A stretch of DNA of 64,000 nucleotides, taken from contig CAYFPM010000002.1 in the NCBI GenBank assembly GCA_964345045.1, forward strand, positions 219,481 through 283,480. Reading direction: 5' to 3'. The DNA comes from an uncultured Gammaproteobacteria bacterium (GTDB taxonomy: Bacteria > Patescibacteriota > Patescibacteriia > Magasanikbacterales > UBA922). The position numbers and the translations under genes were made by a program. The notes beneath the pieces were generated by a model. The model saw only the letters and a program-made list of their open reading frames with translations, was not told the DNA's origin and did no database searches. How positions within the stretch are numbered: position 1 is the stretch's first letter; each line of letters starts with the position of its first letter. Below, in pieces: positions 2,699 through 62,585 of this stretch.

Positions 2699-2818
2699 AT
2701 GTATAGGATTGTGTATACAAAAAGGAGGTTTTTTTGGAGAAATTGGCTAGTTTTGCTTATTTGGCTAGGTTCTGCTAGTCTTTCTATAAGAGGGAATTTC
2801 CTCCAAGGAGAATATGAG

Positions 2819-3346
2819 ATGAACGATTCGGAACGTGTTTGTAAGGCCCTTTCTAATACCTTAGATAGGAATCTAGGGGGGATGCTTGCTCCATACCACC
2901 CTATCAATCACAACGGTGATTGCTTTACGGAAGAGATGACAAGAGATCGTCTCATGTCTCTAGACTGGACAGCTTGCCCGGATCATCCGGACTCCCTAGA
3001 GTATAGCCTGATTTTTCAGGCAAAGGCGGGAGGCCTCGTCTCGGTAGAGAGAGCCGCCAAGTTGCCGAGAGAAACAGAGCTAGAGGTTGTCTACCAAAAT
3101 GATCATCCGCTCAGCGGTGGGTATATGCTGCGCATCGTCGGTGCCGGCGACGGTGTGGTGGTTGACTGTGTGACGCTGGTCTTGATCTGCCTCGATCCTA
3201 GGAGGGAAAGGGTAGAGAAAATTGCTCCGGGAGATTTGAGTACTCCTACATGTATCGACATGACTCGTGTACAGGTGAGTCGTGGAGATATGATTTTGCC
3301 GCAAAAAGCCTTGGAGCTTGGCTTCGAGGTGGTGAGCGTTCGCTAA
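2819..3346 (+). CDS. hypothetical protein (GC-rich islet A, ORF 1)
   Basis: 176 aa from the ATG at 2819, preceded by AAGGAG with 8-nt spacing. About 52% GC against a ~33% flanking background. No recognisable motifs. Confidence 0.5.
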   Translation: MNDSERVCKALSNTLDRNLGGMLAPYHPINHNGDCFTEEMTRDRLMSLDWTACPDHPDSLEYSLIFQAKAGGLVSVERAAKLPRETELEVVYQNDHPLSGGYMLRIVGAGDGVVVDCVTLVLICLDPRRERVEKIAPGDLSTPTCIDMTRVQVSRGDMILPQKALELGFEVVSVR

Positions 3347-3440
3347 CACCTTACTCATTTGCTCTTTTGGAAACTTGACTAAGCCTCAGGCTTCCACACA
3401 ATCCACTATCTTTTTTAAATCTTAGAAAAGATATAGAAAC

Positions 3441-3466
3441 AAAAAACACCGTGCTGGTGTTTTTTG
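3441..3466 (+). terminator. rho-independent terminator
   Basis: A-tract, then hairpin acacc-gtgct-ggtgt, then TTTTTTGTTTT. Confidence 0.55.
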
Positions 3467-3538
3467 TTTTGTTGGTGTTTTTTCTCAATATTGGTAGAAT
3501 TGGTTTCTAAAGTTCTTTTTGGGAGTTAGGAGTACTGC

Positions 3539-3907
3539 ATGAGATATTTTGAATATTTTTCTTTTCAGGATCTTTCGGGGAGGTTGGATCCTAGAGGTCT
3601 CGAAATATTTTTGAGTGTTGGATCCGAAGACGCGGCTGTCTTGGGGCGTTGGTTTCCGGCTGGTTCCAAGACTCTTGGTTTTACTTGGTGTAGAGAAGAG
3701 GGGCGCTTCTACATCAGCGGTCGAAAGATCTCTGTTTTCCCGGCTGTAGAGTTGTCGGGATTAAGCCTTTTTCTTTCTGCTGGCACGGCCAGTTTGGCTG
3801 TTGGAGCAGATTTGCAATTGGCTCAGCTTTTGAGAAAGGCGACCAAGATGGTCGAAACCGGAGAACCTCATGTTCATATCATTTTTCTGCAGTCTGATCC
3901 GACCTAA
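3539..3907 (+). CDS. hypothetical protein (GC-rich islet A, ORF 2)
   Basis: 122 aa with TAGGAG 6 nt upstream of the ATG. About 50% GC. No recognisable motifs. Confidence 0.45.
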   Translation: MRYFEYFSFQDLSGRLDPRGLEIFLSVGSEDAAVLGRWFPAGSKTLGFTWCREEGRFYISGRKISVFPAVELSGLSLFLSAGTASLAVGADLQLAQLLRKATKMVETGEPHVHIIFLQSDPT

Positions 3908-3933
3908 GCTTTGTATTTTTGAGTGACGAAACT

Positions 3934-4019
3934 TTTAAGGATCACTATTTTTTTGCTGCGGAATAAGGCTCGTTTCACTCTCGCAAACGTCCTCGCTGCA
4001 AAAATATTGATCCTTAAAT
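3934..4019. repeat. long imperfect inverted repeat (about 27-bp arms, 30-nt loop)
   Basis: The arm ttaaggatcactatttttttgctgcgg pairs with cctcgctgcaaaaatattgatccttaaat, about 24 of 27 positions matching. Confidence 0.5.
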
Positions 4020-4065
4020 AAAGTTTGTGATTTAAGATTGGTGGCTAGGTCGGACAACAACTCAT

Positions 4066-4093
4066 TTGACAAAATCAGCAAAAGGTATATACT
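4066..4093 (+). promoter_or_regulatory. sigma70-type promoter of the toxin-antitoxin operon
   Basis: TTGACA (4066-4071), 16-nt spacer, TATACT (4088-4093). Confidence 0.55.
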
Positions 4094-4103
4094 GTGTATA
4101 TAC
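4085..4103. promoter_or_regulatory. palindromic operator overlapping the -10 element (likely antitoxin autoregulation site)
   Basis: gtatatac-tgt-gtatatac: two copies of a self-complementary 8-mer. Confidence 0.4.
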
Positions 4104-4123
4104 AAAGTATTAACAAAGTATAT

Positions 4124-4417
4124 ATGAAAACTTCACTTTTAACAGTTAAAATTGATCCCAAACTAAAAGAAGATGCCAAGCAAGTAGCCAGTGATTTGGG
4201 GCTTAGCTTAAGCGCTCTAGTAATCGGCAAACTCCAAGAAGCGGTTCGTTCCAAAACAGTTCAGTTTAGTGCTGGCGAAGAACCTAGTGAAAGGTTGATT
4301 GAATCTATTCGTCAGGCCGAAGAAGATAGGAAAAATGGTGATTATTACTCTTTTGATGATCCAAAAGAGGCTTTGGCTTTTCTTGATAAAGTGAGGGAAG
4401 GGAAAATAGAGGTATGA
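4124..4417 (+). CDS. type II antitoxin, ribbon-helix-helix DinJ/RelB-like
   Basis: N-terminal MKTSLLTVKIDPKLKEDAKQVASDLGLSLSALVIGKLQEAV is an RHH fold. The stop overlaps the toxin start as ATGA. The listed ORF begins at 4094 but the ATG at 4124 fits the promoter. Confidence 0.65.
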   Translation: MKTSLLTVKIDPKLKEDAKQVASDLGLSLSALVIGKLQEAVRSKTVQFSAGEEPSERLIESIRQAEEDRKNGDYYSFDDPKEALAFLDKVREGKIEV

Positions 4418-4683
4418 GAATAGATTATTCCAAAGTTTTTATTAAACATTTACAAAAAGCTCCTATAAAGATTCAAAAGAAATTTAGGGAAAGGCTAGAT
4501 TTATTTTCTGAGAATAAGTTAGATCCAATTTTACGCAATCATTTGCTAAAAGGTAAATGGAAAGGTTACCGATCAATAAATATAAACGGAGATTGGCGAG
4601 CTATTTATCATGATATGGGAGACGGAACGATTGAGTGGGTAGAATTTGTAGAAATTGGTACACACAGTGATTTATATAAATAA
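4414..4683 (+). CDS. yafQ: type II toxin, YafQ/RelE family mRNA interferase
   Basis: 89 aa. HLLKGKWKGYRSININGDWRAIY...VEIGTHSDLYK matches the YafQ pattern H.L.G.WKGYR..H..PDW.LIY....RTGTH..LF. Confidence 0.7.
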   Translation: MRIDYSKVFIKHLQKAPIKIQKKFRERLDLFSENKLDPILRNHLLKGKWKGYRSININGDWRAIYHDMGDGTIEWVEFVEIGTHSDLYK

Positions 4684-4769: not shown

Positions 4770-7700
4770 ATGAAAAGATTTTCTTTTTTGATTTTGCCGA
4801 CTCTTTTTTTGGGTGGCATTTTTTTATTTGCCAAAACTGTGTGGGGATCTGGTGGAAGTATTGTGATTAGTGAGGTGGGGGCTTATGAACCAAATGGTTA
4901 TGAGTGGCTAGAAATTTATAATTATAGTGATTCTGATATAGATTTTAATAATTGGGTATTTTGGGAGAATAATACAAATCACAAAATAAATTTTAAAGAC
5001 GGTGTTTCATCTATTTTGTCGGCTGGCGAGTATGCCATTGTTGCCGAAGACGATACCAAGTTTAAAGAAAAATACCCAGACGTAAATGTAAAAATATTTG
5101 ATAGTTCGTGGGGAACATTAAAAGAGAGTGGAGAAGAAATTGGACTAAAAGATGAAACTGGTAATTTTGTAGAACAGTTTACATATATAAAAGCTTCTAA
5201 CTTTTCTTTGGAAAGAAAAAATTTGGATACGCTAGACTATACTGCTACCAATTGGCAAGAACACCCAGACAGCCACACGGCCGGCCAGGCAAATTATTGG
5301 CAAACTAACTCGGGAACACCAGAGCAGACCGAAAATCAAAATTACGATTTGCGAATTAACGAATTTGTACCTAATCCCAACTCTGGAGAAAAAGAATGGA
5401 TAGAAATTTATAATTTGGGTTTGGAGATAGATCTAAACAATTGGACTCTGAACGATGGAGTTGGAACAATTTATACTTTTTCTGAAATACTTGCTGCCGA
5501 TCAAATTTTGGTAGTAGAGCTAAGTGGTAGCAAATTAAATAATGGGGGAGATATTGTGTCTTTGCTAAACTCGAATGGAGAAATTGTGGATTCTGTCACC
5601 TACGGCTCTTGGGACGACGGAGACACTAGTGACAATGCCCCGATTCCGGGAAAAGGAGAAAGTTTGGTTTGGTCAAATGGCATTTATATAATTAGTAGTA
5701 ATCCTAGTAAAGGAAGCCTAGATTCAGAAAATTATGGATCGGAAAATGAAAATGGTGAATCACAAGATGAGGGAGAGTCTGTCGACTCTACAAACGAAGA
5801 TTCTACCAGTGTAGGATCCGACTCTAGTGAAATTTTTGGTTTTGCAAAAAGTGATTTGGTGATAAACGAATTGGTGTCTGATCCGGACGATAGCGGAGTA
5901 GAGTTTGTAGAAATTTATAATAATTTGGACAAAGATGTAGATCTGGATGGTTGGTATATAGAAGAAGGTAGTGAGAGCAAAACTTTTTTGGAAGGCTCTA
6001 TTTTGGCCAAAGGGTTTTTTGTTTTGGAAAAACCAAAAGGTAATTTGAACAATAGCGGAGATATTTTGTTTTTGTATAGTGAAAACGAAACATTGATAGA
6101 TTCTGTCACTTACGGCAGTTGGGACGATGGTAATCTGGCCGACAATGCCCTAGCCGCAGACGACCCAAAAAGCTTGGCTAGGAAATTTGATGGAGCCGAT
6201 GCAGATAATGATTTTTTTGATTTTTTTCCTACCACCGAAATTACCAAAGGTTTTCCAAATGTAATTGTTTTGGAAAGAGATTCACATATAAACGATGCGC
6301 AAACTTTGGACAATATTGATACAGAGATTAAAAAAATTGTTATAAACGAAGTTTTTCCCAATCCGGCTGGAGCAGATTCGGAAGAAGAATTTATAGAATT
6401 AGTAAATTTGGAAAATTCGGTAGTGGATTTGTCTGGTTGGAAATTGGGAGACAAAAGTAGCAAAAGATTTACTTTTGTCAACACACAGATTGCTGCTGGT
6501 GAACTTTTTGTTTTGAAAAGAGCCGAGACTGGCTTGGCACTAAACAACAGTGGGGGTGACCAAGTAAAGTTGTTTGATCAATATGGCTCTTTGGTTAGTA
6601 GTGTTTCTTATAAAAAATATGCAGAAGAAAATTATAGTTATTCTCTAAAAAATGGTGAATGGGAGTGGACAGAGGTACCTACTCCTCAAGAAGAAAATAT
6701 TATTGTAACCAATAACCAAGCCCCGATTGCCAATATCTATACCGAAACCGAAGTTTTGTCTGGAGAAAAAATTATTTTTGATGCTTCTGATTCTTATGAT
6801 CCCGAAGGAGATGAATTGGATTTTTTTTGGGAGTTTGGAGATGAAAAAAAAGGAGAAGGCGTGGTTGTTTCTCATTTTTATAATAAAGAGGGGATTTACA
6901 CCGTAGAATTATTGGTAGTAGATAGCGAAGGTAATGAAAACAAAAAGAAAGTTTTGGTAAATGTCTTGGGCGAAGGGAGTGGTAGTTTGGATTTGGCTCA
7001 AGGAGATTTTTTACAAGACATCCAAATTACAGAAATTTTTCCCAACCCCGAAGGTTCGGATAGTACAGAATTTGTAGAAATTTATAATGCCGGGAACACC
7101 GAAATAAATTTGTCGGCTCTAAAAATAGATGACGAAGCTGGTGGTTCGGATCCTTATTTGCTTGGAAATAAAGTTATTTCGCCTGGAGAATATTTGATTT
7201 TTGGCAAGCGTGAAACTGGCTTGGCTTTTAACAACACCACCGATGGAGCTAGATTGCTTGATCTTAATAATTTGGTTTTGGCAGAAGTTTATTATGAAGA
7301 TGTAATTACCGGAGCTAGTTTTGCTAGAGATGACAATGGAGTTTGGGGTTGGACCAGCGAACCAACTCCCGGAGCAAAGAATATTCTTGTTGACGCAACC
7401 ATTCTTAAAACAATTAACTCTGGTTCTGGCAAAAAATCCAGCCAGCCGATTGTAGATATTTCGTTAGGACAAATTAGAGATTTTGATGCTGGTGACAAAG
7501 TTCATACTGTTGGCACTGTTGTAGTCGAACCGGGAATTTTTGGTTCGCAATATTTTTATATAGTAGACGAAGTTTTTGGTGTGCAGGTGTATATGCACAG
7601 CAAAGATTTTCCAAATTTGAAAATTGGAGATTTGGTAAGTGTGTCTGGAGAGATAAGCCAAGCTTATGGAGAAACTAGGCTAAAAGTAAAAACGAAAGAT

Positions 7701-8210
7701 AATATCCAAAAAATAGATAGTATTGAAATTCCAAAAAGTAAACAAATAGATATTTACGAAATAGGTGAAACTTTGGAAGGTTCATTTGTATTTGTAAGTG
7801 GAGAAGTGACCGAATTAAAAACTTCTTATATGTATGTAGACGATGGTACCGAAGAAGTAAAAGTTTATTTTAAAAAAGGAACTGGGATTAGCAAAAAAGA
7901 TTATGCTGTAGGAGAAATTGTAAAGGTAACAGGTTTGGTGGGGGAGTCTAGAAGTGGTTATCAACTTTTACCTAGGTCAAAGGATGATATAGAAAAAATA
8001 GGCTTTGCAGAAGATGTGGCTGTTACAAAAGAGGTGGCAGGCGGCAATGGAGAAAGCGAAGTGGCAGAAAAATATCTTACTGCCACGGCTGGTGGACTTA
8101 CTTCTATTCTTATTGGTTTGTTTGCTAGGGCACGGGGGCTGGCTACGCTTGGCGCAGCCAAGAGATTTGGAGGTATGGCAGTGGGGTTGTTTTTTAGGAG
8201 GAGGGGGTAG
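4770..8210 (+). CDS. large secreted/surface protein with multiple lamin-tail-domain (LTD) repeats and a PKD domain
   Basis: 1146 aa. N-terminal signal/TM segment. At least five LTD-type repeats (INEFVPNPNSGEKEWIEIYNLG...NNWTLND, INELVSDPDDSGVEFVEIYNN...LDGWYIEE, INEVFPNPAGADSEEEFIELVNL...LSGWKLGD, ITEIFPNPEGSDSTEFVEIYNAG...). PKD-like FDASDSYDPEGDELDFFWEFGD. C-terminal hydrophobic stretch plus an Arg-rich tail. Confidence 0.85.
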   Translation: MKRFSFLILPTLFLGGIFLFAKTVWGSGGSIVISEVGAYEPNGYEWLEIYNYSDSDIDFNNWVFWENNTNHKINFKDGVSSILSAGEYAIVAEDDTKFKEKYPDVNVKIFDSSWGTLKESGEEIGLKDETGNFVEQFTYIKASNFSLERKNLDTLDYTATNWQEHPDSHTAGQANYWQTNSGTPEQTENQNYDLRINEFVPNPNSGEKEWIEIYNLGLEIDLNNWTLNDGVGTIYTFSEILAADQILVVELSGSKLNNGGDIVSLLNSNGEIVDSVTYGSWDDGDTSDNAPIPGKGESLVWSNGIYIISSNPSKGSLDSENYGSENENGESQDEGESVDSTNEDSTSVGSDSSEIFGFAKSDLVINELVSDPDDSGVEFVEIYNNLDKDVDLDGWYIEEGSESKTFLEGSILAKGFFVLEKPKGNLNNSGDILFLYSENETLIDSVTYGSWDDGNLADNALAADDPKSLARKFDGADADNDFFDFFPTTEITKGFPNVIVLERDSHINDAQTLDNIDTEIKKIVINEVFPNPAGADSEEEFIELVNLENSVVDLSGWKLGDKSSKRFTFVNTQIAAGELFVLKRAETGLALNNSGGDQVKLFDQYGSLVSSVSYKKYAEENYSYSLKNGEWEWTEVPTPQEENIIVTNNQAPIANIYTETEVLSGEKIIFDASDSYDPEGDELDFFWEFGDEKKGEGVVVSHFYNKEGIYTVELLVVDSEGNENKKKVLVNVLGEGSGSLDLAQGDFLQDIQITEIFPNPEGSDSTEFVEIYNAGNTEINLSALKIDDEAGGSDPYLLGNKVISPGEYLIFGKRETGLAFNNTTDGARLLDLNNLVLAEVYYEDVITGASFARDDNGVWGWTSEPTPGAKNILVDATILKTINSGSGKKSSQPIVDISLGQIRDFDAGDKVHTVGTVVVEPGIFGSQYFYIVDEVFGVQVYMHSKDFPNLKIGDLVSVSGEISQAYGETRLKVKTKDNIQKIDSIEIPKSKQIDIYEIGETLEGSFVFVSGEVTELKTSYMYVDDGTEEVKVYFKKGTGISKKDYAVGEIVKVTGLVGESRSGYQLLPRSKDDIEKIGFAEDVAVTKEVAGGNGESEVAEKYLTATAGGLTSILIGLFARARGLATLGAAKRFGGMAVGLFFRRRG

Positions 8211-8305
8211 CTTTTGTAAAAGTAGAACCTTTATAAATAGCAAGGCCGCTCGGTGGTATTCCGAACGGCCGTGCCAGGCAGCTTGTAGAAGGTTGGTTGT
8301 GGAGC

Positions 8306-8653
8306 CTAGAGCCCCTTGACCTTCTTGGGGTCGAGGTGGCTCCCGTCGGGCGGGAAGATGACGACGAGCTCTCCCACGATGGACGAGATGAAGCAGAGTC
8401 GCCTCTCTCCGATGTCGGACGGAGCGAAGATCGTCAGGTTCATCTGGTAGTCCGTTTTCTTGTCCTTGGACCACTCTCCGGGCGAGAGGCGCCCGCCGTC
8501 GCTCTTGGCGAGCCATTCGAACTCCACCTTGATCGTTCGATCTTCGATCCCGATCTTCTTGATCAGACCTCGGAAGAGGTAGTCTTCTTCCTCGTTCTGG
8601 ATTTCCATGTCCCCGCCTACGTATTGGGCAAGGATCTCGTTGGTCAGCTGCAT
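8306..8653 (-). CDS. hypothetical protein (GC-rich islet B)
   Basis: 115 aa. GAAGGA RBS 5 nt upstream of the ATG. About 60% GC. Balanced K/E-rich composition, unlike the Arg-rich alternate frames. Confidence 0.5.
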   Translation of the reverse strand: MQLTNEILAQYVGGDMEIQNEEEDYLFRGLIKKIGIEDRTIKVEFEWLAKSDGGRLSPGEWSKDKKTDYQMNLTIFAPSDIGERRLCFISSIVGELVVIFPPDGSHLDPKKVKGL

Positions 8654-8893
8654 GGCTGTCCTTCTATGTTAGTTGTTCCACGATACCCTCGTGTAGGGGT
8701 TCAGAAAAAAAGTCCTAAACAGAAGATAATACTATAAAAAATCAGTATTGTCAAGTAGTAGGTAGTTAGAATCATTATTGTTCACGCTTAGTTAAAAAGA
8801 GCCAAACATGGTACAATCTACAACGTAAAGAGAATCTAAATTAAAATTTAGCTTGTCCACGTTGTAAACTGTGTTTGGCTTTTTTAAATTGCT

Positions 8894-10873
8894 ATGAAAA
8901 AAATAAATTTAGTGAACAAACTTAACAAGGATCAAATAAAACTATTAGAAACATTCACCCAAGCTTGTCGTCATTCCATATTGCAAATGGTGACAAATGC
9001 TCAAAGCGGTCATCCAGGGGGTTCTTTGGGGATGGTAGATTATTTGGCTCTCCTATATACACAAATAATCGGTCAAACCGGAGAAAAAGTAATTGTTTCA
9101 AACGGTCATGTATCCCCAGCCGTTTATTCAGTTTTGGCTGAGATGGGGTATATAAACAAAGCCGACGTAGTAAAAAATTTTCGTAAAGCTGGGAGCAAAT
9201 ACGAGGGGCACGTAACTAGACACGTGTCGGGTGTGTGGTATGGCACCGGTCCTCTTGGAGCCGGAGTTTCGGCAGCAGCAGGATTTGCTTTGGCCGAGAA
9301 ACTTACCCCCTCAGGCTCTGCGAGCCAGCTCTCCCTAGAAGGGGGAGCAAAAACTGTGCGTGAACCAAACAAAGTGTTTGCGACGGTGGGGGACGGAGAA
9401 TCAGAAGAAGGTCAGGTCTATGAAATGATGAATTTTGCTGCCAAGTATAAGCTAGACAATTTGATTGTCTTTATGGATTACAATTATGTGCAATTAACCG
9501 ATAGCTTGGAAGAGATAATGCCTATAGATCCCAAAGAAATTTGGTTGGCAGCCGGCTGGCAAGTGATAGAAGTAGATGGACATGATTTTCAAGATATGTG
9601 GCGAGGGATTAACAAGGCTTACAAAGTAAAAAACAAACCTGTGCTTTTGCTTGGAAAAACTGTAATGGGACAAGGAGTAGACTTTATGCAAAAAACCGGT
9701 GAAGCCAAAAAGGCTACTTGGCATGGCAAAGCTCCAAAACCAGAAGAGGCGAGAGAAGAATTAGCCAGGTTACAAATAACCAAAGAACAAAAACAATTTT
9801 TAGATAATTTTAGAAAAACAGTAAGTTACAAACCAAAGAAACCAAATTTTCCAAAAAGTTTGGCAAAAGTAAAAATTAAGTCTGGCACCCCCAAGCTCTA
9901 CAAAGTAGACACTCTTACAGATTGTCGCAGTGCTTATGGAGCTGCTCTTCTCGACTTGGCCAAAAAGAACAAAAAAGTAATTGCCCTAACCGCCGATGTG
10001 GCTGGTTCGGTAAAAACCGATGGGGTAAAAAAAGAATTACCAAATCAACATATAGAGTGCGGTATTGCTGAGCAACACATGGTTTCTACTTCTGGAGGCA
10101 CAAGTTTGTCTGGGCTAGTTCCTTTTTGTTCTACCTTTGGTGCTTTTATGACCAGTCGTGCCAAAGATCAAGTTAGGGTAAACGATATTAACGAAACCAA
10201 TGTAAAAATGGTAGCCACTCACTCTGGACTCTCTGTAGGCGAAGACGGTCCGACTCACCAAGCTATAGACGATATGGGTTCTATGTTGGGACTTTATAAT
10301 ACTATGGTGGTGGAACCGGCCGATCCCAATCACACCGATCGGATTATCCGTTATATTGCCAGTCATTATGGTAATTTTTATGTACGCATGGGTAGACACA
10401 AAGTGCCTGTGCTTACCAAAGAAAACGGTGAGCCTTTTTACGACAAAAATTATAAATATGAGTATGGTAAATGTGATCTACTGAGAAAGGGATCTAGTTT
10501 AACTATTGTAGCTGGTGGTTCAATGGTCTCGGAAGCGATAAAAGCTAGAGAACTTTTAAAATCAGTTAGACTTCATACCAAAGTGGAGATTGTAGTGGCT
10601 AGTTCTATAAAAAAGTTTGATCAAACTCTGGTAGATTCTATAAAAAAGACCAAGCGAGTAATAACTGTAGAAGATCATACAATTTACTCTGGTTTGGGTA
10701 ACCAAGTTGGTCACGTTATATTAGATAAAAAATTACCAATCAAAAATTTTATAAAAATGGGAACCAAAGATTATCAACTCTCTGGAACTTCTTTACAACT
10801 ATACGAAGCAGCTGGAATTTCGGCGAGGCATATAAAAGACAAATGTGTTAAAATATTAGGTAGTAGAGAATAA
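8894..10873 (+). CDS. tkt: transketolase
   Basis: 659 aa. N-terminal TPP motif GHPGGSLGMVDY, a pyrimidine-binding middle domain (ECGIAEQHMVSTSGG) and a transketolase C-terminal domain. Confidence 0.9.
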   Translation: MKKINLVNKLNKDQIKLLETFTQACRHSILQMVTNAQSGHPGGSLGMVDYLALLYTQIIGQTGEKVIVSNGHVSPAVYSVLAEMGYINKADVVKNFRKAGSKYEGHVTRHVSGVWYGTGPLGAGVSAAAGFALAEKLTPSGSASQLSLEGGAKTVREPNKVFATVGDGESEEGQVYEMMNFAAKYKLDNLIVFMDYNYVQLTDSLEEIMPIDPKEIWLAAGWQVIEVDGHDFQDMWRGINKAYKVKNKPVLLLGKTVMGQGVDFMQKTGEAKKATWHGKAPKPEEAREELARLQITKEQKQFLDNFRKTVSYKPKKPNFPKSLAKVKIKSGTPKLYKVDTLTDCRSAYGAALLDLAKKNKKVIALTADVAGSVKTDGVKKELPNQHIECGIAEQHMVSTSGGTSLSGLVPFCSTFGAFMTSRAKDQVRVNDINETNVKMVATHSGLSVGEDGPTHQAIDDMGSMLGLYNTMVVEPADPNHTDRIIRYIASHYGNFYVRMGRHKVPVLTKENGEPFYDKNYKYEYGKCDLLRKGSSLTIVAGGSMVSEAIKARELLKSVRLHTKVEIVVASSIKKFDQTLVDSIKKTKRVITVEDHTIYSGLGNQVGHVILDKKLPIKNFIKMGTKDYQLSGTSLQLYEAAGISARHIKDKCVKILGSRE

Positions 10874-12682: not shown

Positions 12683-14101
12683 ATGTCAATTAGTAAAGTC
12701 TGCAAACCATTTGTTCTAACAATTTTTGGAGCATCTGGGGATTTGGCCAAAATAAAAATTTTTCCGAGTCTATATACTATGGCTCTACAAAAAAGGTTTC
12801 CTAAGAAATACCTGATTGTTGGGTTTGCCAGATCCAAAATGAGTTTGGAAGAATTTCGCAAAGAGTTTCGGGTGAGTGTAAAAAAATATACCAAGGGCAA
12901 AATAGATGAAAAAGTTTTAAGAGATTTGGTAAAACACGTTTATTATTTTTCCGGACAATACGACAAGCTGGAAAATTTTGTAGAGTACCAAAAATTTTTA
13001 AAGAAAAAAGGTAGAGCTGGTATGCCCCACATAGCATACCTTTCGGTTCCGCCGGTAGTTTTTCAACCCATTGTAAAAAATATTGCCGAATCTAGAAAAA
13101 GAAAAACAGAAGACATAAGAGTAGTAATAGAAAAACCATTTGGCTATGATCGGGAGTCAGCCGAAAGTATGTTTCATTTTGTTTCTAGATATTTCAAAGA
13201 GGAACAATTTTATTTGCTGGATCACTATCTTGGTAAGTCGCAAGTACAAAGTATATTAAACATGCGTCACTCCAACCGGATTTTGTCGCATATTCTTACT
13301 GGTAGTGAAATTGCCAATATTCAAATTACGGCTTTTGAAAAAATAGGCGTAGAACATAGAGTTGGATATTTTGAAGAGGTTGGTATTGTTCGCGATATGG
13401 TGCAGTCACATTTGTTGCAAGTTTTGGCGCTAGTGACTATGAACATCCCTACCAAAAAAACAGCCTCTAGTTTGCACAGAGAAAAATATGCCATCCTTTC
13501 GGCAATTAATTGTCCTACCCAACCAAAAAATGTAGTGCTTGGTCAGTACGAAGGTTATAAAAAACAAGTCGGCGTAAAGAAAAATTCTCGTACCAGTACT
13601 TTTGTTGCGGTTAGGCTTTTTTTGGACAAACAAGATTGGTCAAATGTTCCAATTTATATTCGTACGGGAAAAAAATTACATGAGAAACACACTTATGTGG
13701 TAGTTGAATTAAAAAAATTTGATTTTCAGTCGGCAAAAGAAGAACCAAATAGAATTATAATTGAATTTGCGCCAGAAGCTAGAATAAACATTACACTTGT
13801 TAACCTACAAGAAGGTGTAAAACAATACCAAAATATTACTACCGCCGATTCAATAGCTTGTAATATAGAAGGTTGTTTACCGGCTCATGCAGATCTTATA
13901 ATGGACGTAATAAATAAAGAAAGAGTCCATTTTCTTAGTTTTCAAGAGGTAATAGCTTGTTGGAAAGTGGTAGATCAAATTACTGGAGCTGCTAGAAAAA
14001 AAAGAATAAAATTAGAGAGTTACAGACCCTGTGGCAAAGGCCCAATTTCTCAGAACAATCTACCTGCCAAAGATGGGTTTAAGTGGTACGATATTCATTG
14101 A
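12683..14101 (+). CDS. zwf: glucose-6-phosphate 1-dehydrogenase
   Basis: 472 aa. IFGASGDLAKIK (NADP binding), EKPFGYD, DHYLGK and RDMVQSHLLQ signature motifs. Confidence 0.9.
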   Translation: MSISKVCKPFVLTIFGASGDLAKIKIFPSLYTMALQKRFPKKYLIVGFARSKMSLEEFRKEFRVSVKKYTKGKIDEKVLRDLVKHVYYFSGQYDKLENFVEYQKFLKKKGRAGMPHIAYLSVPPVVFQPIVKNIAESRKRKTEDIRVVIEKPFGYDRESAESMFHFVSRYFKEEQFYLLDHYLGKSQVQSILNMRHSNRILSHILTGSEIANIQITAFEKIGVEHRVGYFEEVGIVRDMVQSHLLQVLALVTMNIPTKKTASSLHREKYAILSAINCPTQPKNVVLGQYEGYKKQVGVKKNSRTSTFVAVRLFLDKQDWSNVPIYIRTGKKLHEKHTYVVVELKKFDFQSAKEEPNRIIIEFAPEARINITLVNLQEGVKQYQNITTADSIACNIEGCLPAHADLIMDVINKERVHFLSFQEVIACWKVVDQITGAARKKRIKLESYRPCGKGPISQNNLPAKDGFKWYDIH

Positions 14102-14177
14102 TGTACGAATTACGAATTATTCGAATTTACGAATGGTTGATTTATTTGTCTATTCGGACTATTCGTAATTCACACAT
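14102..14177. repeat. MITE-like inverted-repeat element, copy 1 (fills the zwf-pgl intergenic space)
   Basis: Left arm tgtacgaattacgaatta and right arm tattcgtaattcacaca (degenerate reverse complement); 76 bp. Confidence 0.7.
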
Positions 14178-14837
14178 ATGCTAGAGACTTTTACAAATGA
14201 AAAAGATTGGATCGAGGCCTCGGTTCAGTTTTTTGGACAAGTTATAAATAATAATAACGAAGCTAGAATAGCTATTTCTGGTGGCAAAACCCCGGAACCT
14301 GTTTACGAAGCTTTGGCCGAAGCAGAGTTGGATTTTTCGGGTACAAAATTTTATCAAGTAGACGAGCGTTATGTTCTGGAAAATGATTTGGATTCAAACA
14401 AAGGTATGATTATGGACAGTCTAAAAAAGGCGGTAGCTGCTGGCGCCGAGTTTCATCATTTCGATACGACTTTGCCAATCCCAGAGGCTCTGGAAAATTA
14501 TCAAAAAACTTTGGAAGAAGCAGTACCTTTTGATTTGTGTGTACTAGGGATTGGCACAGATGGGCATATAGCTTCTCTCTTTCGTCGAGGCTCGGCTATT
14601 TTTGAAAACAAAAAGTTAGTAGCCAATACTCATACCTATGAATTTGCTGTTTATGATCGACTAACTATAACTTTTCCAGCCATTATGCCAAGTCAAAAAT
14701 TACTTTTATTGGTAGCTGGCAAAAATAAAAAAGAAGTTATAGAAGAATTGTTACACAAAGATTTTTCTATAGAGGATTTCCCAGCCAAAAAATTATTAGA
14801 GCATCCTGATTTGACTATTTATTTTGGTGACTATTAA
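14178..14837 (+). CDS. pgl: 6-phosphogluconolactonase
   Basis: 219 aa. ISGGKTPEPVYEALA and LGIGTDGHIASLF motifs of the NagB/Pgl fold. Confidence 0.85.
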   Translation: MLETFTNEKDWIEASVQFFGQVINNNNEARIAISGGKTPEPVYEALAEAELDFSGTKFYQVDERYVLENDLDSNKGMIMDSLKKAVAAGAEFHHFDTTLPIPEALENYQKTLEEAVPFDLCVLGIGTDGHIASLFRRGSAIFENKKLVANTHTYEFAVYDRLTITFPAIMPSQKLLLLVAGKNKKEVIEELLHKDFSIEDFPAKKLLEHPDLTIYFGDY

Positions 14838-14842
14838 TGTTA

Positions 14843-14917
14843 TGTACGAATTACGAATTATCCGAATTTACGAATGATTATTTTATTCGCATATTCGTAC
14901 TATTCGTAATTCGTACA
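14843..14917. repeat. MITE-like inverted-repeat element, copy 2
   Basis: Perfect terminal inverted repeats tgtacgaattacgaatta and tattcgtaattcgtaca bracketing an internal ttcgaatttacgaat unit; 75 bp. Confidence 0.75.
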
Positions 14918-14927
14918 TCTTTTTTTT

Positions 14928-15554: not shown

Positions 15555-15594
15555 TTTTTTTTATTTGATTTTTGAATTTTATATTTTTTGGGGT

Positions 15595-15631
15595 GGCAGG
15601 CTCGCGACAATCGTCACGGCCTGCCTTTTTT
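15595..15631 (+). terminator. rho-independent terminator
   Basis: Hairpin ggcaggc...gcctgcc followed by TTTTTT. Confidence 0.6.
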
Positions 15632-15644
15632 ATACCACTACCTA

Positions 15645-16094
15645 TCATCGTAGTGCCATCCTTTCTGCGAGCTGTTTTGCTCGCCCCTCTAACACACAGT
15701 CGACAGCTTCGGACAAGCTTTCGACTGTGCTGTAGAGCGCCATCTCTAGATCTAGACGCTCTTGTCGTGGAATCGGTCCACGTACCGCCGAGAGAACCAC
15801 CGTTTTTAGGTCGAAGCTGAGTAGCTCGTAGACTGTTCCCGTGCCAGGTAAAATGAACTCACGACAACCTTGGTTATATAGACGCATCAATAAGCCTTGA
15901 TTGGCTGCTTGGCGAATTAGTTCGTGGTGTCGCAGTGGGAGTTGGTATGTTGTACCTAGGATATGTGGCCTTTGCCACAATCGTTCGGCCGGATCGATTA
16001 CTCCCATCCAGAGGCGTAGTTCAATTGAGAGATATTTTGTACCTCCGCACCTCCTCTTCGAACTGGCGAATTTTTTCTGTAATGGTTTTGTCAA
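15645..16094 (-). CDS. hypothetical protein (GC-rich islet C); start uncertain
   Basis: 149-aa ORF, about 58% GC, on the minus strand. Its upstream region holds a consensus promoter (TTGAAA-16-TATACT on minus, about 16150-16180). The TTG start lacks a well-spaced RBS. Confidence 0.45.
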   Translation of the reverse strand: MTKPLQKKFASSKRRCGGTKYLSIELRLWMGVIDPAERLWQRPHILGTTYQLPLRHHELIRQAANQGLLMRLYNQGCREFILPGTGTVYELLSFDLKTVVLSAVRGPIPRQERLDLEMALYSTVESLSEAVDCVLEGRAKQLAERMALR

Positions 16095-38327: not shown

Positions 38328-38336
38328 GGGTGTCTT

Positions 38337-47603: not shown

Positions 47604-49637
<2,034 letters not shown>

Positions 49638-49640
49638 TTT

Positions 49641-53406: not shown

Positions 53407-53518
53407 TGTGCGAATTCCGAATTCCGACTACGTCGGTACGAATATACGAATACTAGAAATTATTCATCAATATTCTATTTAGAATATTCGTAAATTCGTA
53501 TCATTCGTAATTCGTACA
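53407..53518. repeat. MITE-like inverted-repeat element, copy 5 (112 bp)
   Basis: Forward units tgtgcgaattccgaattccga...gtacgaatatacgaata and reverse units tattcgtaaattcgta...attcgtaattcgtaca around an internal gaatattctatttagaatattc palindrome. Confidence 0.7.
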
Positions 53519-53524
53519 TTCTTT

Positions 53525-54778: not shown

Positions 54779-54780
54779 TT

Positions 54781-54840
54781 TAGCGTTTAGGTAGTAGCGT
54801 ATAGCGTTTAGTTTTTTAAAATCCTAAACGCTATACGCTA
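54781..54840. repeat. palindromic intercistronic element built from the TAGCGTTTAG unit
   Basis: 17-bp perfect inverted repeat tagcgtatagcgtttag / ctaaacgctatacgcta with a 12-nt loop, preceded by a tagcgtttag half-copy. Confidence 0.65.
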
Positions 54841-54852
54841 AAAACTATTCGC

Positions 54853-56055
54853 TTACTCATAATGTAATGCTTCGATTGGATTCAACTTGGCAGCAGCTCT
54901 AGCCGGAGCCACTCCAAAAAGTAGACCAATTATCCCGGCAATAAATACAGATACGACAATTGCAATAGGAGAAATTATAAAATCGTAATTGTAACCTAGA
55001 TAATTTACCACTACAGAAATAAGATAAGACAGCAGCGTTCCACCTATAATACCGATAATTCCACCCAGAATAGACAATACCACTGTCTCAAACAAAAATT
55101 GCAAAAGAATATCTCTATTCGTAGCTCCTACAGCCTTGCGTAAGCCAACTTCTCGGGTTTTTTCTTTTACCGCAATTAGCATGATGTTCATAATCCCCAC
55201 ACCACCTACAAAAAGCGAAACGGCAGCGATAGCTACCAAGAAGAATCTAATGGCATTGGTCACGTTGGTTAAAATATCCAAAAAGTCAGCTGTGTTTCTT
55301 ACAGAAAAATCTTCTTCATCATGTCGTTCAATAAGAGTCTTTTTAACCTCTTCAACTGTTTGTGGAATTCTTTTTTCTTCGTCAACTCTTAATCGAATAA
55401 AAGAAACATGTTTGATCCCCAAGAGTTTTTGTTGGGCTGTTTTTAGGGGGATATAGGCAGATTGGTTGGGATTTTCAAAAAAAGTAGAAGCTTTTGGTTC
55501 TAGTACTCCAATAATTTTGAATCTTTTTTTCTTTAGTCTTATGGATTCTCCAACTGGATTTTGATTGCCAAAAATTTCTTCGGCCAAATCTGCTCCAAGT
55601 ACCATTAGATTTTCGGCAGCATTGGCTTCGTCTTCTGTAAAAAATCTTCCTTTTGCAATTTTTACTCTTTCAACTTTTTGGTAACTTTCTGTAGTACCGG
55701 TGTAGGTAATAGCTTTTTCAAAATCACCCCAACTAAAGACATCGTTTCCTGTAGTGTACGCAGCCACGTGTTCGGCATGGGCTACATTACTTTTTTTTTC
55801 AAGTGCTAGCGCATCTTCGTAGGTAAGCGTAGTAATAACAATACCAAAAGCCGCTGCCGGTGGACCATCTTCTTCAGAAGATCCTGGCAAGATAGCGATC
55901 ATGTCGGTTCCTTGTTGTTCTATTTGGTTGGTAATCAAACTCTGCGCTCCGGCTCCAATAGACATTACCAATACTACTGCCCCAATTCCAATCACAAGAC
56001 CAAGCATAGTCAAAAAAGAACGGCGTTTGTGAGCCGATAAAGATTGTAATGACAA
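54853..56055 (-). CDS. ABC transporter permease, FtsX/MacB-like (permease 1)
   Basis: 400 aa with the same architecture as the downstream permease. Confidence 0.8.
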   Translation of the reverse strand: MSLQSLSAHKRRSFLTMLGLVIGIGAVVLVMSIGAGAQSLITNQIEQQGTDMIAILPGSSEEDGPPAAAFGIVITTLTYEDALALEKKSNVAHAEHVAAYTTGNDVFSWGDFEKAITYTGTTESYQKVERVKIAKGRFFTEDEANAAENLMVLGADLAEEIFGNQNPVGESIRLKKKRFKIIGVLEPKASTFFENPNQSAYIPLKTAQQKLLGIKHVSFIRLRVDEEKRIPQTVEEVKKTLIERHDEEDFSVRNTADFLDILTNVTNAIRFFLVAIAAVSLFVGGVGIMNIMLIAVKEKTREVGLRKAVGATNRDILLQFLFETVVLSILGGIIGIIGGTLLSYLISVVVNYLGYNYDFIISPIAIVVSVFIAGIIGLLFGVAPARAAAKLNPIEALHYE

Positions 56056-56083
56056 ATGTAAGGCAGATTTTATTTTCAGAGAT

Positions 56084-56165
56084 TAGCGTTTAGCTGTTAG
56101 TGTCTAGTGTTTAGCCAATAGTGATGTAAGTAAGTTAAAAACTAAACGCTAGACGCTATAAGCTA
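56084..56165. repeat. second TAGCGTTTAG-family palindromic element
   Basis: tagcgtttagctgttagtgtctagtgtttagcc...ctaaacgctagacgctataagcta. Confidence 0.55.
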
Positions 56166-60167: not shown

Positions 60168-60410
60168 ATGGATACCATAGTAAAAGCAACAACAAAAGGT
60201 CAAATTACCATCCCGGCAAAATGGAGAAATCGTTTTAATACAGATCGTTTTTTAATAAGTGCAAAAGATACTCATTTGGAAATTAAACCCATAGATTTGG
60301 ACAAGATAGATCAAGATAAGGAATACACAGTTTTTGATGCTATTCGCGATAACAAAGGAAAAGGAATAAAAGCAAAAGATTTGGCAAAGATCCTGAAAAA
60401 GAAGATTTAG
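60168..60410 (+). CDS. AbrB/MazE/SpoVT-type antitoxin
   Basis: 80 aa. N-terminal swapped-hairpin motif TKGQITIPAKWRNRF. Confidence 0.6.
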   Translation: MDTIVKATTKGQITIPAKWRNRFNTDRFLISAKDTHLEIKPIDLDKIDQDKEYTVFDAIRDNKGKGIKAKDLAKILKKKI

Positions 60411-60414
60411 TTTT

Positions 60415-60648
60415 ATGGACAAGATATAAAAATTATTTAGAAAAATAACCAAAAAACAGAGACAATTACTTTTGTCTATAATAGAAAAATTATTAAATAA
60501 AGAAACAAAGGGTTTGAATATAAAAAAAGTAAAAGGTACAGATTTTTATAGACTGAGATCTGGTAGATTTAGAATAATTTTTCACAAAGAGAATAAAGAT
60601 GTGATTATTGACTCAATCAAATTAAGAGATGAGAAAACATATAAGTAG
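60415..60648 (+). pseudogene. RelE/ParE-family toxin gene disrupted by a premature TAA at codon 5
   Basis: Frame 60415 reads ATG GAC AAG ATA TAA, then continues in-frame as KLFRKITKKQRQLLLSIIEKLLNKETKGLNIKKVKGTDFYRLRSGRFRIIFHKENKDVIIDSIKLRDEKTYK (RelE/ParE signature YRLR.G.FRII). The only in-frame restart is a TTG at 60472. Confidence 0.5.
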
Positions 60649-60665
60649 TATAAATTTTTTTAAAT

Positions 60666-60700
60666 AAAAGCTCCCCTAAATTTAGGGGAGCTTTTGGTTT
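60666..60700. terminator. bidirectional terminator
   Basis: Perfect 14-bp palindrome aaagctcccctaaa / tttaggggagcttt with a T-run. Confidence 0.55.
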
Positions 60701-60779
60701 GTAGTTTAGGTTTTTGCCCTAGGGGCTTTGGTGTGTTACCGTAGAGGTCGCTTTCGCCCTTTGGGCTTCAGCGTACCGT

Positions 60780-60872
60780 TGGCGGAGAGAGAGGGATTCG
60801 AACCCTCGGTTCGCTAAATTGCGAACACCGCTTTTCGAGAGCGGCACCTTAAACCAGCTCAGACATCTCTCC
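60780..60872 (-). tRNA. tRNA-Ser (anticodon CGA), CCA encoded
   Basis: GGAGAGA acceptor; anticodon loop CTCGAAA; long variable arm GTTCGC-AATTTA-GCGAAC; T-arm GGTTCGAATCC; 3' TCTCTCCGCCA. Confidence 0.85.
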
Positions 60873-60959
60873 ATAGGTGACTTAGAATAAATTATTTTGT
60901 AAAAAAAATAAAGTGCCTAGGGCACGGTGAAGTAGGTGGGGCCGATTGGGCTGCTAGGC

Positions 60960-61298
60960 TCACTCTGTTTTGAGGAGTATGCCTGGCCAAGCTTCGCGAA
61001 TCGGCCGCTCTGGAGGATATTTGATGGGGATCTTTTTTCCGAACCACAGTCCAGGTCTTTCTTCTCTCCAAATTACTTTGGAGGTAAGTCTTTGCCTTTG
61101 GGTGAATTCTGTCCATCGTCCTTCACGCATGATTTGTGTAAAGACTTTGATAGTCTCGTCCACTTGTCTGCTCAAAGCCTCTGCCTGTCTTTTGGCAAGG
61201 GCTCTGACGACCTTCCGCTCTACATAAGAATATATGATAATTAGCAGAGGAATACACCAAAGAAAGGTTGTGAACCACCAATTAAAATCCTTGTCCAT
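60960..61298 (-). CDS. small hypothetical membrane protein (GC-moderate; islet G)
   Basis: 112 aa. AAGGAGG RBS, N-terminal TM helix (WWFTTFLWCIPLLIIIYSYV), basic C-terminal region. Confidence 0.5.
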   Translation of the reverse strand: MDKDFNWWFTTFLWCIPLLIIIYSYVERKVVRALAKRQAEALSRQVDETIKVFTQIMREGRWTEFTQRQRLTSKVIWREERPGLWFGKKIPIKYPPERPIREAWPGILLKTE

Positions 61299-61360
61299 AC
61301 TGGACCTCCTTACTTTCTACCCTACTAAATCAAAACAATTTTGGCAATAATGTTGCAAAA

Positions 61361-61390
61361 ACAAAAAACTCTCATATGAGAGTTTTTTGT
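61361..61390. terminator. bidirectional terminator
   Basis: A-run, palindrome aactctcatatgagagtt, TTTTTTGTTT. Confidence 0.6.
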
Positions 61391-61522
61391 TTACTTTTGG
61401 ACTGCAGTGCAAAAGAATGGGGACACGCTATTATTTTTGGCCGGCGTGTGAGCGGCTAAGAAAGTTGGTAGGTTGCCGAGTCTATTAGTTATTGACTATT
61501 TTTAGCAGGTGCCAGCTTTCTC

Positions 61523-62539
61523 CTAAAGAGCTAGACGATTTTTGATAAGCTGCCAATTTTTGGCAATCATATCGTCACCTTGGCGGGGAATGTCTCGGAT
61601 TTCCAGCATCAGCTTGCCGTCTCTCACACGCAAACGCTCCCACCACCAGACAGAACGTAGGAACAGATCCATGTCTCTCGGTGGCTCGGTTGCCACAGAG
61701 AGAGCTGGTATGCGGCGGGCTGGTTGGCTGTTTTTTCGATCCATAAAGACTTTTTTACGTAGCAACTCACGCCAGTATTTGTCAAAACAGGTTGGGGTTG
61801 CCCCGTAGCGATTCGTTTCGTAGCCTGCTTTTGACTTGTCAATGTAGCTACGCCAGATTTGTTCCGATTCTGTGGCAGGCCAGCCGTTTGCATTTCGGAG
61901 TGGTTGGAGCACTTGTACGAAATCAAAAGCCTCTTCGATGCTTGTAACATCTATGGTGTACTGGACACAGGCAATGTGCCCCAAGCTTTGGAGGATTTCA
62001 CCATCAAGTTCCAGCCAGATCTGGTCACGTTTGTCTGGCATCAGCAGGGTATTGGCATCGGTCAAACCATCATAATGCTTGGTCAAGGCCTTGGCTCCGA
62101 CATTGGTTCCGGCTTGCTTGAGTTGTCCAAGCACCTGATAAGTTTCTTTGAGTAGTCCCTTATACTCCTCAATTCTTGCCGGAGGAGTATTGAGTTCCAA
62201 GTTGGACCAGCCCAGTTCATACATAAGTGAGAACTGACCATTGCCCACCTCTACAACTACTCCGTTGCTTTCTTCTTGAATCTTCCAACCAGGAAGTTGG
62301 CTCATAGCTCTCATCATGGCCTGAGACTGATCGAATGAGATTGGCTCTGCCGAATCAGCTTTTACGAACAGAGTCTCCACCTCTACGCCGAACATCCGGG
62401 AACTGGGAGTACAAGTTTTTGCACGGGTGAAGTATTGTGCTAGATTGGAAGCGTCTGTTTGCTCGTCTAGGCCGTTTTCGCGAGCAAAGCGATCATACTC
62501 ATCCCAACCATACCCGGGCATCCATCTATTCCACGCCAT
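61523..62539 (-). CDS. carboxylate-amine ligase, glutamate-cysteine ligase family 2 (GCS2/YbdK-like; GC-rich islet G)
   Basis: 338 aa. N-terminal FGVEVETLFV (YbdK-type GxExE motif) and the GCS2 fold pattern. About 55% GC. AAAGGAG RBS. Confidence 0.6.
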   Translation of the reverse strand: MAWNRWMPGYGWDEYDRFARENGLDEQTDASNLAQYFTRAKTCTPSSRMFGVEVETLFVKADSAEPISFDQSQAMMRAMSQLPGWKIQEESNGVVVEVGNGQFSLMYELGWSNLELNTPPARIEEYKGLLKETYQVLGQLKQAGTNVGAKALTKHYDGLTDANTLLMPDKRDQIWLELDGEILQSLGHIACVQYTIDVTSIEEAFDFVQVLQPLRNANGWPATESEQIWRSYIDKSKAGYETNRYGATPTCFDKYWRELLRKKVFMDRKNSQPARRIPALSVATEPPRDMDLFLRSVWWWERLRVRDGKLMLEIRDIPRQGDDMIAKNWQLIKNRLAL

Positions 62540-62585
62540 TTTTTTCTCCTTTACCTGTTCTGTTTAGAACAGGTCACTTTCTTTA

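Follow-up and report, generated by a model that had tools for sequence, protein, structure and literature searches.

The window analysed here, a stretch of 64 kb on contig CAYFPM010000002.1, belongs to an AT-rich Magasanikbacteria-like bacterium of the candidate phyla radiation (CPR, Patescibacteria) and contains eight GC-rich islets, numbered 1 to 8, whose open reading frames (ORFs) are named I1a to I8b. We propose, with a probability of about 0.62, that the islets are several independent horizontal acquisitions of gene-sized DNA pieces from more than one GC-richer donor genome. The acquired pieces would each measure 0.4-1.1 kb, hold one or two genes and have been placed in intergenic spacers of a conserved housekeeping backbone. 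An original prediction, made from the letters of the window, had suggested the repeated acquisition of small foreign pieces; this part is borne out by the foreign composition of the islets and by empty sites in relatives, while the description of the pieces as self-contained cassettes with their own promoter and terminator is not.

Composition, position and integrity of the islets

The whole window has a GC content of 38.6%, and the backbone 36.9% once eleven GC-rich segments (7.4 kb in total, 11.6% of the window, GC 51.3%) are masked. The housekeeping genes of the backbone include tkt, 6PGD, G6PD, 6PGL, transaldolase, PGI, RuvB, RadC, EF-P, nrdJ, iPGM and ahcY. The nearest species-level genomes in GTDB are Candidatus Magasanikbacteria (iPGM identity 57%), the best match in the metagenomes of the Joint Genome Institute (JGI) has an iPGM identity of 61%, and neither collection holds a closer relative. 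All eight islets listed in the original prediction are GC peaks, reaching 0.47-0.66 in windows of 200-300 nt versus 0.369 in the backbone. A two-state hidden Markov model delimited segments at 2876-3343, 8031-8699, 15590-16068, 36605-37342, 43919-44902, 46039-47020, 60716-61220 and 61573-62537; the three weakest, I1b (3547-3915), I5 (39478-39858) and I7b (47177-47559), lay under its threshold, and the model additionally picked a tRNA pair (tRNAs at 16893-17076) and a 211 nt stretch inside tkt. The latter (9188-9398, GC 0.58) encodes a Gly/Ala-rich segment of an otherwise AT-rich gene and is probably an effect of amino-acid composition rather than an insertion; with this internal exception, the native neighbours are AT-rich as had been claimed. 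The twelve islet ORFs are as follows, with GC3 the GC content at third codon positions, z the codon-usage distance relative to length-matched backbone fragments and SD a Shine-Dalgarno sequence.

I1a, 2819-3346, plus strand: 175 aa, no family; GC 0.49, GC3 0.50, z=5.1; GC-rich segment at about 2800-3401, SD AAGGAG upstream, terminator 3437-3469
I1b, 3539-3907, plus strand: 122 aa, no family; weak islet; GC3 0.44, z=2.4
I2, 8306-8653, minus strand: 115 aa, no family; GC3 0.845, GC2 0.33, z=13.7; islet at about 8225-8728
I3, 15645-16094, minus strand: 149 aa as listed, true start uncertain; GC 0.49, z=6.7
I4, 36576-37235, plus strand: 219 aa, predicted lipoprotein; GC 0.60, GC3 0.72, z=14.4
I5, 39527-39736, plus strand: 69 aa from an ATG after SD GAAGGAGG; GC3 0.50, z=4.1
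I6a, 43896-44294, plus strand: 132 aa from an ATG after SD AAGGAG; z=4.1
I6b, 44212-44649, plus strand: 145 aa, without SD; GC3 0.73, z=12.2
I7a, 46017-46970, plus strand: short-chain dehydrogenase/reductase (SDR) with an N-terminal membrane anchor, 317 aa from a GTG after SD AAAGGAGG; GC3 0.66, z=15.6
I7b, 47167-47508, plus strand: 113 aa, predicted membrane protein with a transmembrane (TM) segment; weak islet; GC3 0.52, z=3.0
I8a, 60960-61298, minus strand: 112 aa, one TM segment, SD AAGGAGG; weak islet; GC3 0.45, z=2.1
I8b, 61523-62539, minus strand: 338 aa, predicted divergent glutamate-cysteine-ligase/YbdK-fold carboxylate-amine ligase; terminator 61362-61389

GC3 separates the 12 islet ORFs (0.44-0.84) from 40 backbone genes (0.22-0.42) with disjoint ranges (Mann-Whitney p=1e-7), no backbone gene exceeding 0.418 and no islet ORF lying below 0.443. 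GC1 and GC2 are likewise raised in the islet ORFs (p~1e-5), and the amino-acid composition of the islet proteins is therefore shifted too. Codon usage distinguishes a strong tier (I2, I4, I6b and I7a; z=12-16), a moderate tier (I1a, I3, I5, I6a and I8b; z=4-7) and a weak tier (I1b, I7b and I8a; z=2-3), the most extreme usage being that of I2. Base composition and codon usage are thus not uniform along the window, in agreement with what had been predicted. The dinucleotide signatures of the islets are unlike that of the backbone and also unlike one another, and the observed/expected ratio of CpG (CpG o/e) ranges from 0.55 to 1.16 across islets, compared with 0.75 in the backbone. Good SD sequences precede most islet ORFs and codon periodicity is clear in the strong islets, as in I2 with GC2 at 0.33 and GC3 at 0.85. 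Altogether, these data support the islets as compositionally foreign protein-coding insertions, and the presence of real genes is evidenced by SD sequences and signal peptides, by the SDR Pfam match of I7a and by the high-confidence ligase fold of I8b.

In order to place the islets, we compared the window with loci of its relatives (designated by L numbers). Magasanikbacteria loci with protein identities of 54-80% show a conserved gene order around iPGM. The genes DsbA-PfkB-Na/Ca exchanger-ahcY-CNNM-rluB-iPGM form a compact and compositionally uniform array in L003 and L045, while nrdJ adjoins cobAT in L073 and CNNM adjoins rluB in L074. In these relatives, which are compositionally uniform, islets 4, 6 and 7 are missing from their sites, and no alternative cassettes are present there:

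Islet 7 site (ahcY-CNNM): spacer of about 100-160 nt in a relative (L003), 1.7 kb in the window
Islet 6 site (CNNM-rluB): spacer of at most 260 nt in relatives (L003, L074), 1.1 kb in the window
Islet 4 site (nrdJ-cobAT): spacer of about 300 nt in a relative (L073), 1.25 kb in the window

Since the sites are short spacers in the relatives, islets 4, 6 and 7 are lineage-specific insertions into intergenic spacers, and their genes are not conserved at syntenic positions. At the neighbouring junction rluB-iPGM, L074 and L075 carry another extra gene (369 aa, AT-rich).

The joining of islets and backbone was followed in independent assemblies of runs ERR2281800-803 (project PRJEB17505), produced by MEGAHIT (ENA) and by Logan. 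All retrieved independent contigs are 99.8-100% identical to the window, with islet and backbone on the same contig: L042 spans I4, I5, I6 and I7a, L039, L040 and L043 cover individual junctions, L086-88 cover the junction between I8b and the neighbouring AstE-like gene, and the contig k127_74985 (47,120 nt), which ends at window position 47156 and whose length would suffice for islets 1-7a, was compared over 34905-47156. As contigs from four runs and two pipelines match across the checked junctions, chimeric assembly is excluded for those islets. The true contig ends within the window nevertheless fall inside islets in 9 of 15 cases (37124, 37284, 39741, 44020, 46210, 47370, 61836, 62054 and 62322), in lower-coverage runs and far more frequently than the islet share of the sequence predicts, in a sample that is biased because the contigs were retrieved via genes beside islets. 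In the deepest run, the MEGAHIT contigs are interrupted at 47153-47156, between I7a and I7b. The pattern of contig ends could reflect lower depth, or more microdiversity or population variation, within the islets.

Expression signals, homologs and mobility

The promoters and terminators at the islets were described as belonging to the islets themselves. The form AACAAAAAAC-hairpin-GTTTTTTGTT is exact at about 3438, 37388 and 61360 and occurs as a variant at 39829, so that three of the four terminators said to share it do so. The pattern AACAAAAAAC...GTTTTTTGTT has 8 matches versus about 1 expected; terminators with an A-tract, a hairpin and a T-tract number 13 strict cases, most of them at native genes, and two of them read AAACAAAAAA. 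An islet-specific terminator was rejected, the same design being found at native genes across the genome. Near-consensus sigma70 sites also occur at tRNA and native genes; the islet promoter put forward at 36469-36497 indeed has a 17 nt spacer, while a count on the sequence gives spacers of 20 nt for the 'consensus' promoters at 45944 and 47082. Palindromic terminators and strong promoters are thus a general, host-type style of this genome and not specific to cassettes. Nor does each islet possess a promoter of its own, since I8b starts 46 nt after the AstE-like gene, with only a small hairpin and an SD sequence between them and too little space for a promoter.

None of the islet proteins is related to another, and the islet DNA segments share no similarity. 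Every islet protein tested falls into a singleton cluster found in this organism alone. In a search of 5.8 billion proteins, this community's own assemblies included, I4 matched only itself and the best non-self homolog of the I7a SDR was 29% identical. No islet protein matched NCBIfam, and a phage or plasmid origin found no match in INPHARED, PLSDB, PHROGs or IMG/VR except marginal SDR-family ones. At gathering scores Rfam reported only tRNAs in the window, and even at E<=1 no islet gave a credible match.

As had been stated, no integrase accompanies the islets: scanning every sizeable ORF of the window against Pfam revealed no integrase, transposase or recombinase. There were no target-site duplications (TSDs), terminal inverted repeats (TIRs) or consistent direct or inverted repeats at islet edges, no end repeats common to the islets, and no duplicated tRNA fragment near I3 or I8a, although both adjoin tRNA genes. 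A common cassette family was therefore rejected, given the lack of protein or DNA similarity, end repeats, TSDs and TIRs; with host-type signals at the islets and I8b lying in a module, the earlier idea of an unrecognised family of self-contained cassettes is abandoned.

The spread in composition (GC3 0.44-0.84, CpG o/e 0.55-1.16) points to several donors. The strong tier would derive from donors of roughly 60-65% GC. The GC range of the moderate tier, 46-54%, coincides in part with the upper values in sister Patescibacteria (loci 42-47%, genes 41-50%), which would fit the published finding that most transfers detected in groundwater Patescibacteria occur within the phylum (PMC12455944). Patescibacteria genomes carry individually transferred genes as well as islands, up to 13% of the genome, and competence has been proposed as the route (PMC12455944). 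Entry into the present genome could likewise have occurred by DNA uptake, competence being widespread in CPR, with recombination that needs no dedicated integrase; either small pieces would have been taken up directly, or larger islands would later have been cut down to the useful gene under the deletion bias of a streamlined genome. Expression would then rely on host-type signals, namely AT-rich sigma70-like promoters, SD sequences and the usual bidirectional terminators, and for I8b on read-through from the native upstream AstE-like gene.

Several known systems resemble the islets in part. Like tRNA-linked genomic islands and integrative elements, they have an atypical composition, and I3 and I8a adjoin tRNA genes; unlike these, they lack an integrase, flanking direct repeats and a duplicated tRNA 3' end, and they measure 0.4-1.1 kb as compared with 10-200 kb. 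Integron cassettes are also small, usually single-gene units with unrelated cargo, whereas the islets share no attC-like site, have no intI and form no array, but are dispersed, most of them with their own promoter-like sites. Lineage-specific ORFans of bacteria are usually short and AT-rich and are thought to be phage-derived; the islet genes are also short, lineage-restricted, homolog-free and atypical in composition, but GC-rich in an AT-rich genome, and no phage, IMG/VR or PHROG relatives were found. The islands of groundwater Patescibacteria (PMC12455944) come from the same phylum-level group, make up a similar acquired share (up to 13% there, 10-12% of the window) and include many pieces without obvious mobility genes, for which competence was proposed. 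The pieces in the window differ in being single-gene sized, all GC-richer, very closely spaced (about 11 in 64 kb) and mostly without a detectable homolog, while the published events were detected by donor-recipient gene matching (PMC12455944). Finally, the minimal mobile elements of Neisseria (Saunders & Snyder 2002; Snyder et al. 2007; definition in PMC3082526) are whole-gene cassettes flanked by two conserved genes; they lack integrase, transposase and end repeats and occur in presumed transformable bacteria, as would be the case here. They are defined by different cassettes at one site among strains, whereas the relatives of the window, all distant, show empty sites. By analogy, this model would be the closest mechanistic counterpart of the islets.

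The I8b ligase module and other features of the window

I8b is predicted to be a ligase with the glutamate-cysteine-ligase/YbdK fold. Its family is small, with 98 clusters among 1.84 billion representatives and a best identity of 49%, and it contains invariant Glu and Arg columns; the family profile matches PDB 6gmo/2gwc at E~7e-6, and 3 of 40 members have a GCS2 Pfam match. The AlphaFold2 model of I8b, at a predicted local distance difference test score (pLDDT) of 93, retrieved 2gwc (E=8e-12, TM-score 0.65) and 1r8g (E=4e-6) in Foldseek. As judged from gene neighbourhoods, I8b is part of a conserved module of a helix-turn-helix (HTH) gene, an AstE-like gene and a ligase gene, and not a free-standing cassette. 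Its partners in the window are:

AstE/AspA-family gene, 62586-63326, minus strand: Pfam AstE_AspA_cat; GC3 0.25, native AT-rich composition; operon partner of I8b
TrpR/YerC-like HTH gene, 63645-63941, minus strand: Pfam Trp_repressor; third member of the module

In L090 and L091 an AstE gene lies directly upstream of the I8b homolog (the L090 AstE being 52.5% identical to that of the window), in L084 and L085 an HTH gene does so (44% identical to the window HTH, E=2e-24), and in the context of P0013 the HTH, ligase and AstE genes occur together. The module occupies 61523-63941 in the window, 7564-8939 in L084 and 5162-6999 in L090, in genomes that are unrelated. The junction between the AstE-like gene and I8b is a sharp compositional boundary, and in three of the four genomes compared the ligase exceeds its partner or surroundings by 12-17 GC points:

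Window: ligase gene GC 0.49, AstE partner 0.33
L090: ligase gene GC 0.68, AstE partner 0.51
L083: ligase gene GC 0.62, rest of locus 0.49
L084: ligase gene GC 0.495, rest of locus 0.46

The candidate explanations for this recurrent excess are repeated xenologous replacement beside a conserved flank and a GC process intrinsic to the gene. For I8b itself, a xenologous ligase would likely have replaced its counterpart, or been inserted, beside the conserved AstE flank.

I7a is a divergent SDR as judged by its match to Pfam adh_short (PF00106, E=6.4e-19, 68.6 bits versus a cutoff of 26.6), while no NCBIfam equivalog threshold was reached. It has a TM segment and is followed by a GC-rich hairpin at 46981-47015; further downstream, the terminator of I7b (about 47565-47597) is common to the convergent ahcY gene. 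The predicted lipoprotein signal peptide of I4 ends LLATAC|GG. The I4 gene has a promoter TTGACA-17-TATATA at about 36469-36497, GC-rich untranslated regions (UTRs) on both the 5' and 3' sides and a palindromic terminator at 37389-37421, and a single-sequence AlphaFold model of the protein has a pLDDT of 45. A GC-rich hairpin-forming leader (37440-37560) follows that terminator and precedes the cob(I)alamin adenosyltransferase gene (37565); it could be a regulatory RNA and has no Rfam match even at E<=1.

I2 is served by a promoter TTGACA-17-TATTAT on the minus strand (8754-8726) and has a GC-rich hairpin at about 8245-8276, convergent with the lamin-tail domain (LTD) gene; it has no relatives in IMG/VR or in the phage and plasmid sets. 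The product of the LTD gene (4770-8210) is a large surface protein that combines five lamin-tail domains with a PKD domain and an OB-fold nucleic-acid-binding domain, and its GC-rich C-terminal membrane anchor (about 8031-8210) runs into islet 2. It is conceivable that the protein binds extracellular DNA.

I6a has a promoter-like TTGACA at 43831, and an independent gene call (P0107) likewise gives 132 aa. I6a (GC3 0.56) and I6b (GC3 0.73) overlap by 83 nt in different frames, and the sequence of islet 6 is identical in independent assemblies. A single gene split by a simple recent frameshift was rejected, as the I6b frame has six stops upstream of 44212. Translational coupling, programmed frameshifting or gene decay could account for the overlap. 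The GC-rich 3' tail of islet 6 (44650-44902) folds moderately well. I5 has a promoter-like site at 39464-39492, a GC-rich 3' UTR and a terminator at 39829-39853. About 140 nt separate I3, which has a promoter-like site at 16178-16151, from the 3' end of tRNA-Pro (16234-16308), and I8a is directly upstream of tRNA-Ser (60780-60872). I1a has no Pfam, PHROG or NCBIfam match, and the I1b protein forms a singleton cluster found on 3 contigs.

The surroundings of the islets hold further features. A type II toxin-antitoxin pair, DUF6364/YafQ (4094-4683), of native AT-rich composition, lies 3' of I1b; near islet 8, a MazE-like ORF and a 58 aa ORF that is RelE-like by eye only (60168-60648) are likewise AT-rich type II toxin-antitoxin genes. 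Upstream of islet 1, a 67 nt direct repeat (2496-2562 and 2655-2721, 76% identity) lies near the minimum of the cumulative GC skew, and both copies bear a DnaA-box-like motif (TTATCCACA, TTATTCACA). A replication origin beside islet 1 was rejected, as DnaA boxes are not enriched in the window (6 found versus about 3 expected). The intergenic stretch 1965-2200 is moderately GC-rich (0.47), with a hairpin and a T-run at its bounds; its reading as a structured RNA is unsupported, with a folding z-score of only -1.3 and no Rfam match.

A family of palindromic intergenic repeats with TACGAAT/ATTCGTA units occurs at 14100-14179, 14841-14920, 49024-49095, 49575-49640 and 53480-53521. Two single genes are bracketed by inverted copies: the 6PGL gene (14178-14837), with arms of 79 nt that are 76% complementary, and a PDDEXK_3 nuclease gene (49088-49501), where the 34 nt arms show 100% complementarity. 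The latter is missing between ahcY and the Na/Ca exchanger in L003 and may be an AT-rich, repeat-flanked insertion. A second type of intergenic repeat, with TAGCGTTTAG-like and partly palindromic units (54780-54853 and 56083-56165), flanks MacB/FtsX-like transporter genes. Outside the window, other AT-rich CPR-like genomes (about 41% GC; 'Gammaproteobacteria' in their records) contain sharp segments of GC 0.62-0.67, at 7944-8956 and 19143-19500 in L005 and at 624-979 and 13263-13685 in L006. These have no Pfam or Rfam identity, are unrelated to the islets of the window and have ORFs open in several frames; some lie beside rpsL, rnpA and tgt, as judged by eye from the N-terminal residues. These segments may be additional foreign islets or structured RNAs that have so far escaped recognition.

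Competing explanations and significance

Several observations weigh against independent acquisition from GC-richer donors. Acquired bacterial DNA is usually AT-richer than its recipient, while the islets are GC-richer. No donor was found for any islet, and an SDR without a close homolog is unexpected for ordinary high-GC donors; the sensitive homolog searches covered I4, the SDR and I8b. Empty sites were found for three islets only and come from distant relatives (best iPGM identity 57-61%). The homologs of I8b are GC-richer than their neighbours in L090 and L083 too, a recurrence that independent transfers do not predict. Finally, the integration mechanism is wholly inferred.

A more specific version of the acquisition reading, nested within it, holds that whole-gene cassettes are swapped between strains at conserved-gene junctions by natural transformation and recombination of homologous flanks, as in minimal mobile elements. 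Islets 4, 6 and 7 lie between the conserved pairs nrdJ-cobAT, rluB-CNNM and CNNM-ahcY, mobility genes and end repeats are lacking, relatives bear other extra genes at neighbouring junctions (such as the 369 aa gene in L074/L075), in two genomes I8b lies against an AstE flank that is well conserved, and low-coverage contigs tend to end in islets, as if these varied within the population. However, no strain was found with a different cassette at one of these sites, the available relatives are far too distant for flank-mediated homologous recombination, and the pattern of contig ends is biased by retrieval and could reflect coverage alone. We consider this mechanism possible but rather unlikely. 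More speculative, and somewhat less probable still, is the general proposal that CPR renew their gene repertoire without mobility genes, through promoter-to-terminator single-gene units exchanged at intergenic spacers after DNA uptake; GC-richness would then record a specific GC-rich pool, either a host or a shared extrachromosomal reservoir, and the GC excess of the ligase would be the footprint of recurrent replacement.

The islet genes might instead have been captured from the high-GC physical host of a presumed episymbiont and hence point to the identity of that host. The codon usage of the strong tier is typical of genomes of 60-65% GC, with CpG o/e of about 1.0-1.16, and 4 of the 12 islet proteins are predicted to be membrane or exported proteins, a class expected at a cell-cell interface. 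Such an origin is improbable in view of the wide variation in composition between islets, of the lack of any homolog above 29% for I4 and the SDR in a collection that includes the community's own assemblies, and of the mostly phylum-internal transfer in groundwater Patescibacteria (PMC12455944).

The choice between coding sequence and RNA is ambiguous for the weak islets, as it is for the 3' tail of islet 6. I1b, I5, I7b, I8a and the tail could be GC-rich structured non-coding RNAs, given that their codon-usage signals are weak (z=2-4), that fold z-scores reach -3.3 (44650-44905) and -2.4 in the I7b region (47120-47560), and that a GC-rich island in an AT-rich genome often turns out to be an RNA gene, as with the tRNAs at 16893-17076. 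The absence of Rfam matches even at E<=1, the good SD sequences before I5, I7b and I8a and the plausible TM helices in I7b and I8a make this quite improbable.

Very improbable, in turn, is that some islets are native genes whose GC was raised by a gene-specific process, either a hot spot of GC-biased conversion or selection on transcripts. The membership of the ligase in the conserved HTH-AstE-ligase module, its GC3 at about 0.25 above that of neighbours in three of four genomes of very different base composition, and the clustering of contig ends in islets would favour such a process. Against it, GC1 and GC2 are shifted as well, so that amino-acid composition differs, islets 4, 6 and 7 are absent in relatives, and L084 shows no offset; to our knowledge, a GC3 shift from 0.30 to 0.85 also far exceeds reported conversion bias. 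An artefact of assembly or binning, in which GC-rich fragments of other organisms were spliced into the contig, is scarcely credible: MEGAHIT breaks at 47153-47156 and inside several islets in low-coverage runs, and the exact I2 protein is found only on an 889 nt ENA contig, but separate runs and two pipelines join islet and backbone at 100% identity (L042, L039, L040, L043, L086-88), and host-type SD sequences, promoters and terminators abut the islets.

Independent acquisition of gene-sized pieces fits the horizontal transfer already known in the phylum and provides a denser example of it, without overturning it. CPR bacteria have very small genomes and their hosts are mostly unidentified, so that the way in which they gain new functions matters. 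The window offers an unusually dense and clean set of gene-sized acquisitions, with sharp edges and about 10% of the sequence involved, and the GC-rich ligase within a conserved module is a small, concrete puzzle. Islets that proved variable within the population would mark flexible sites of the genome, and donors, if identified, might reveal the partner organism.

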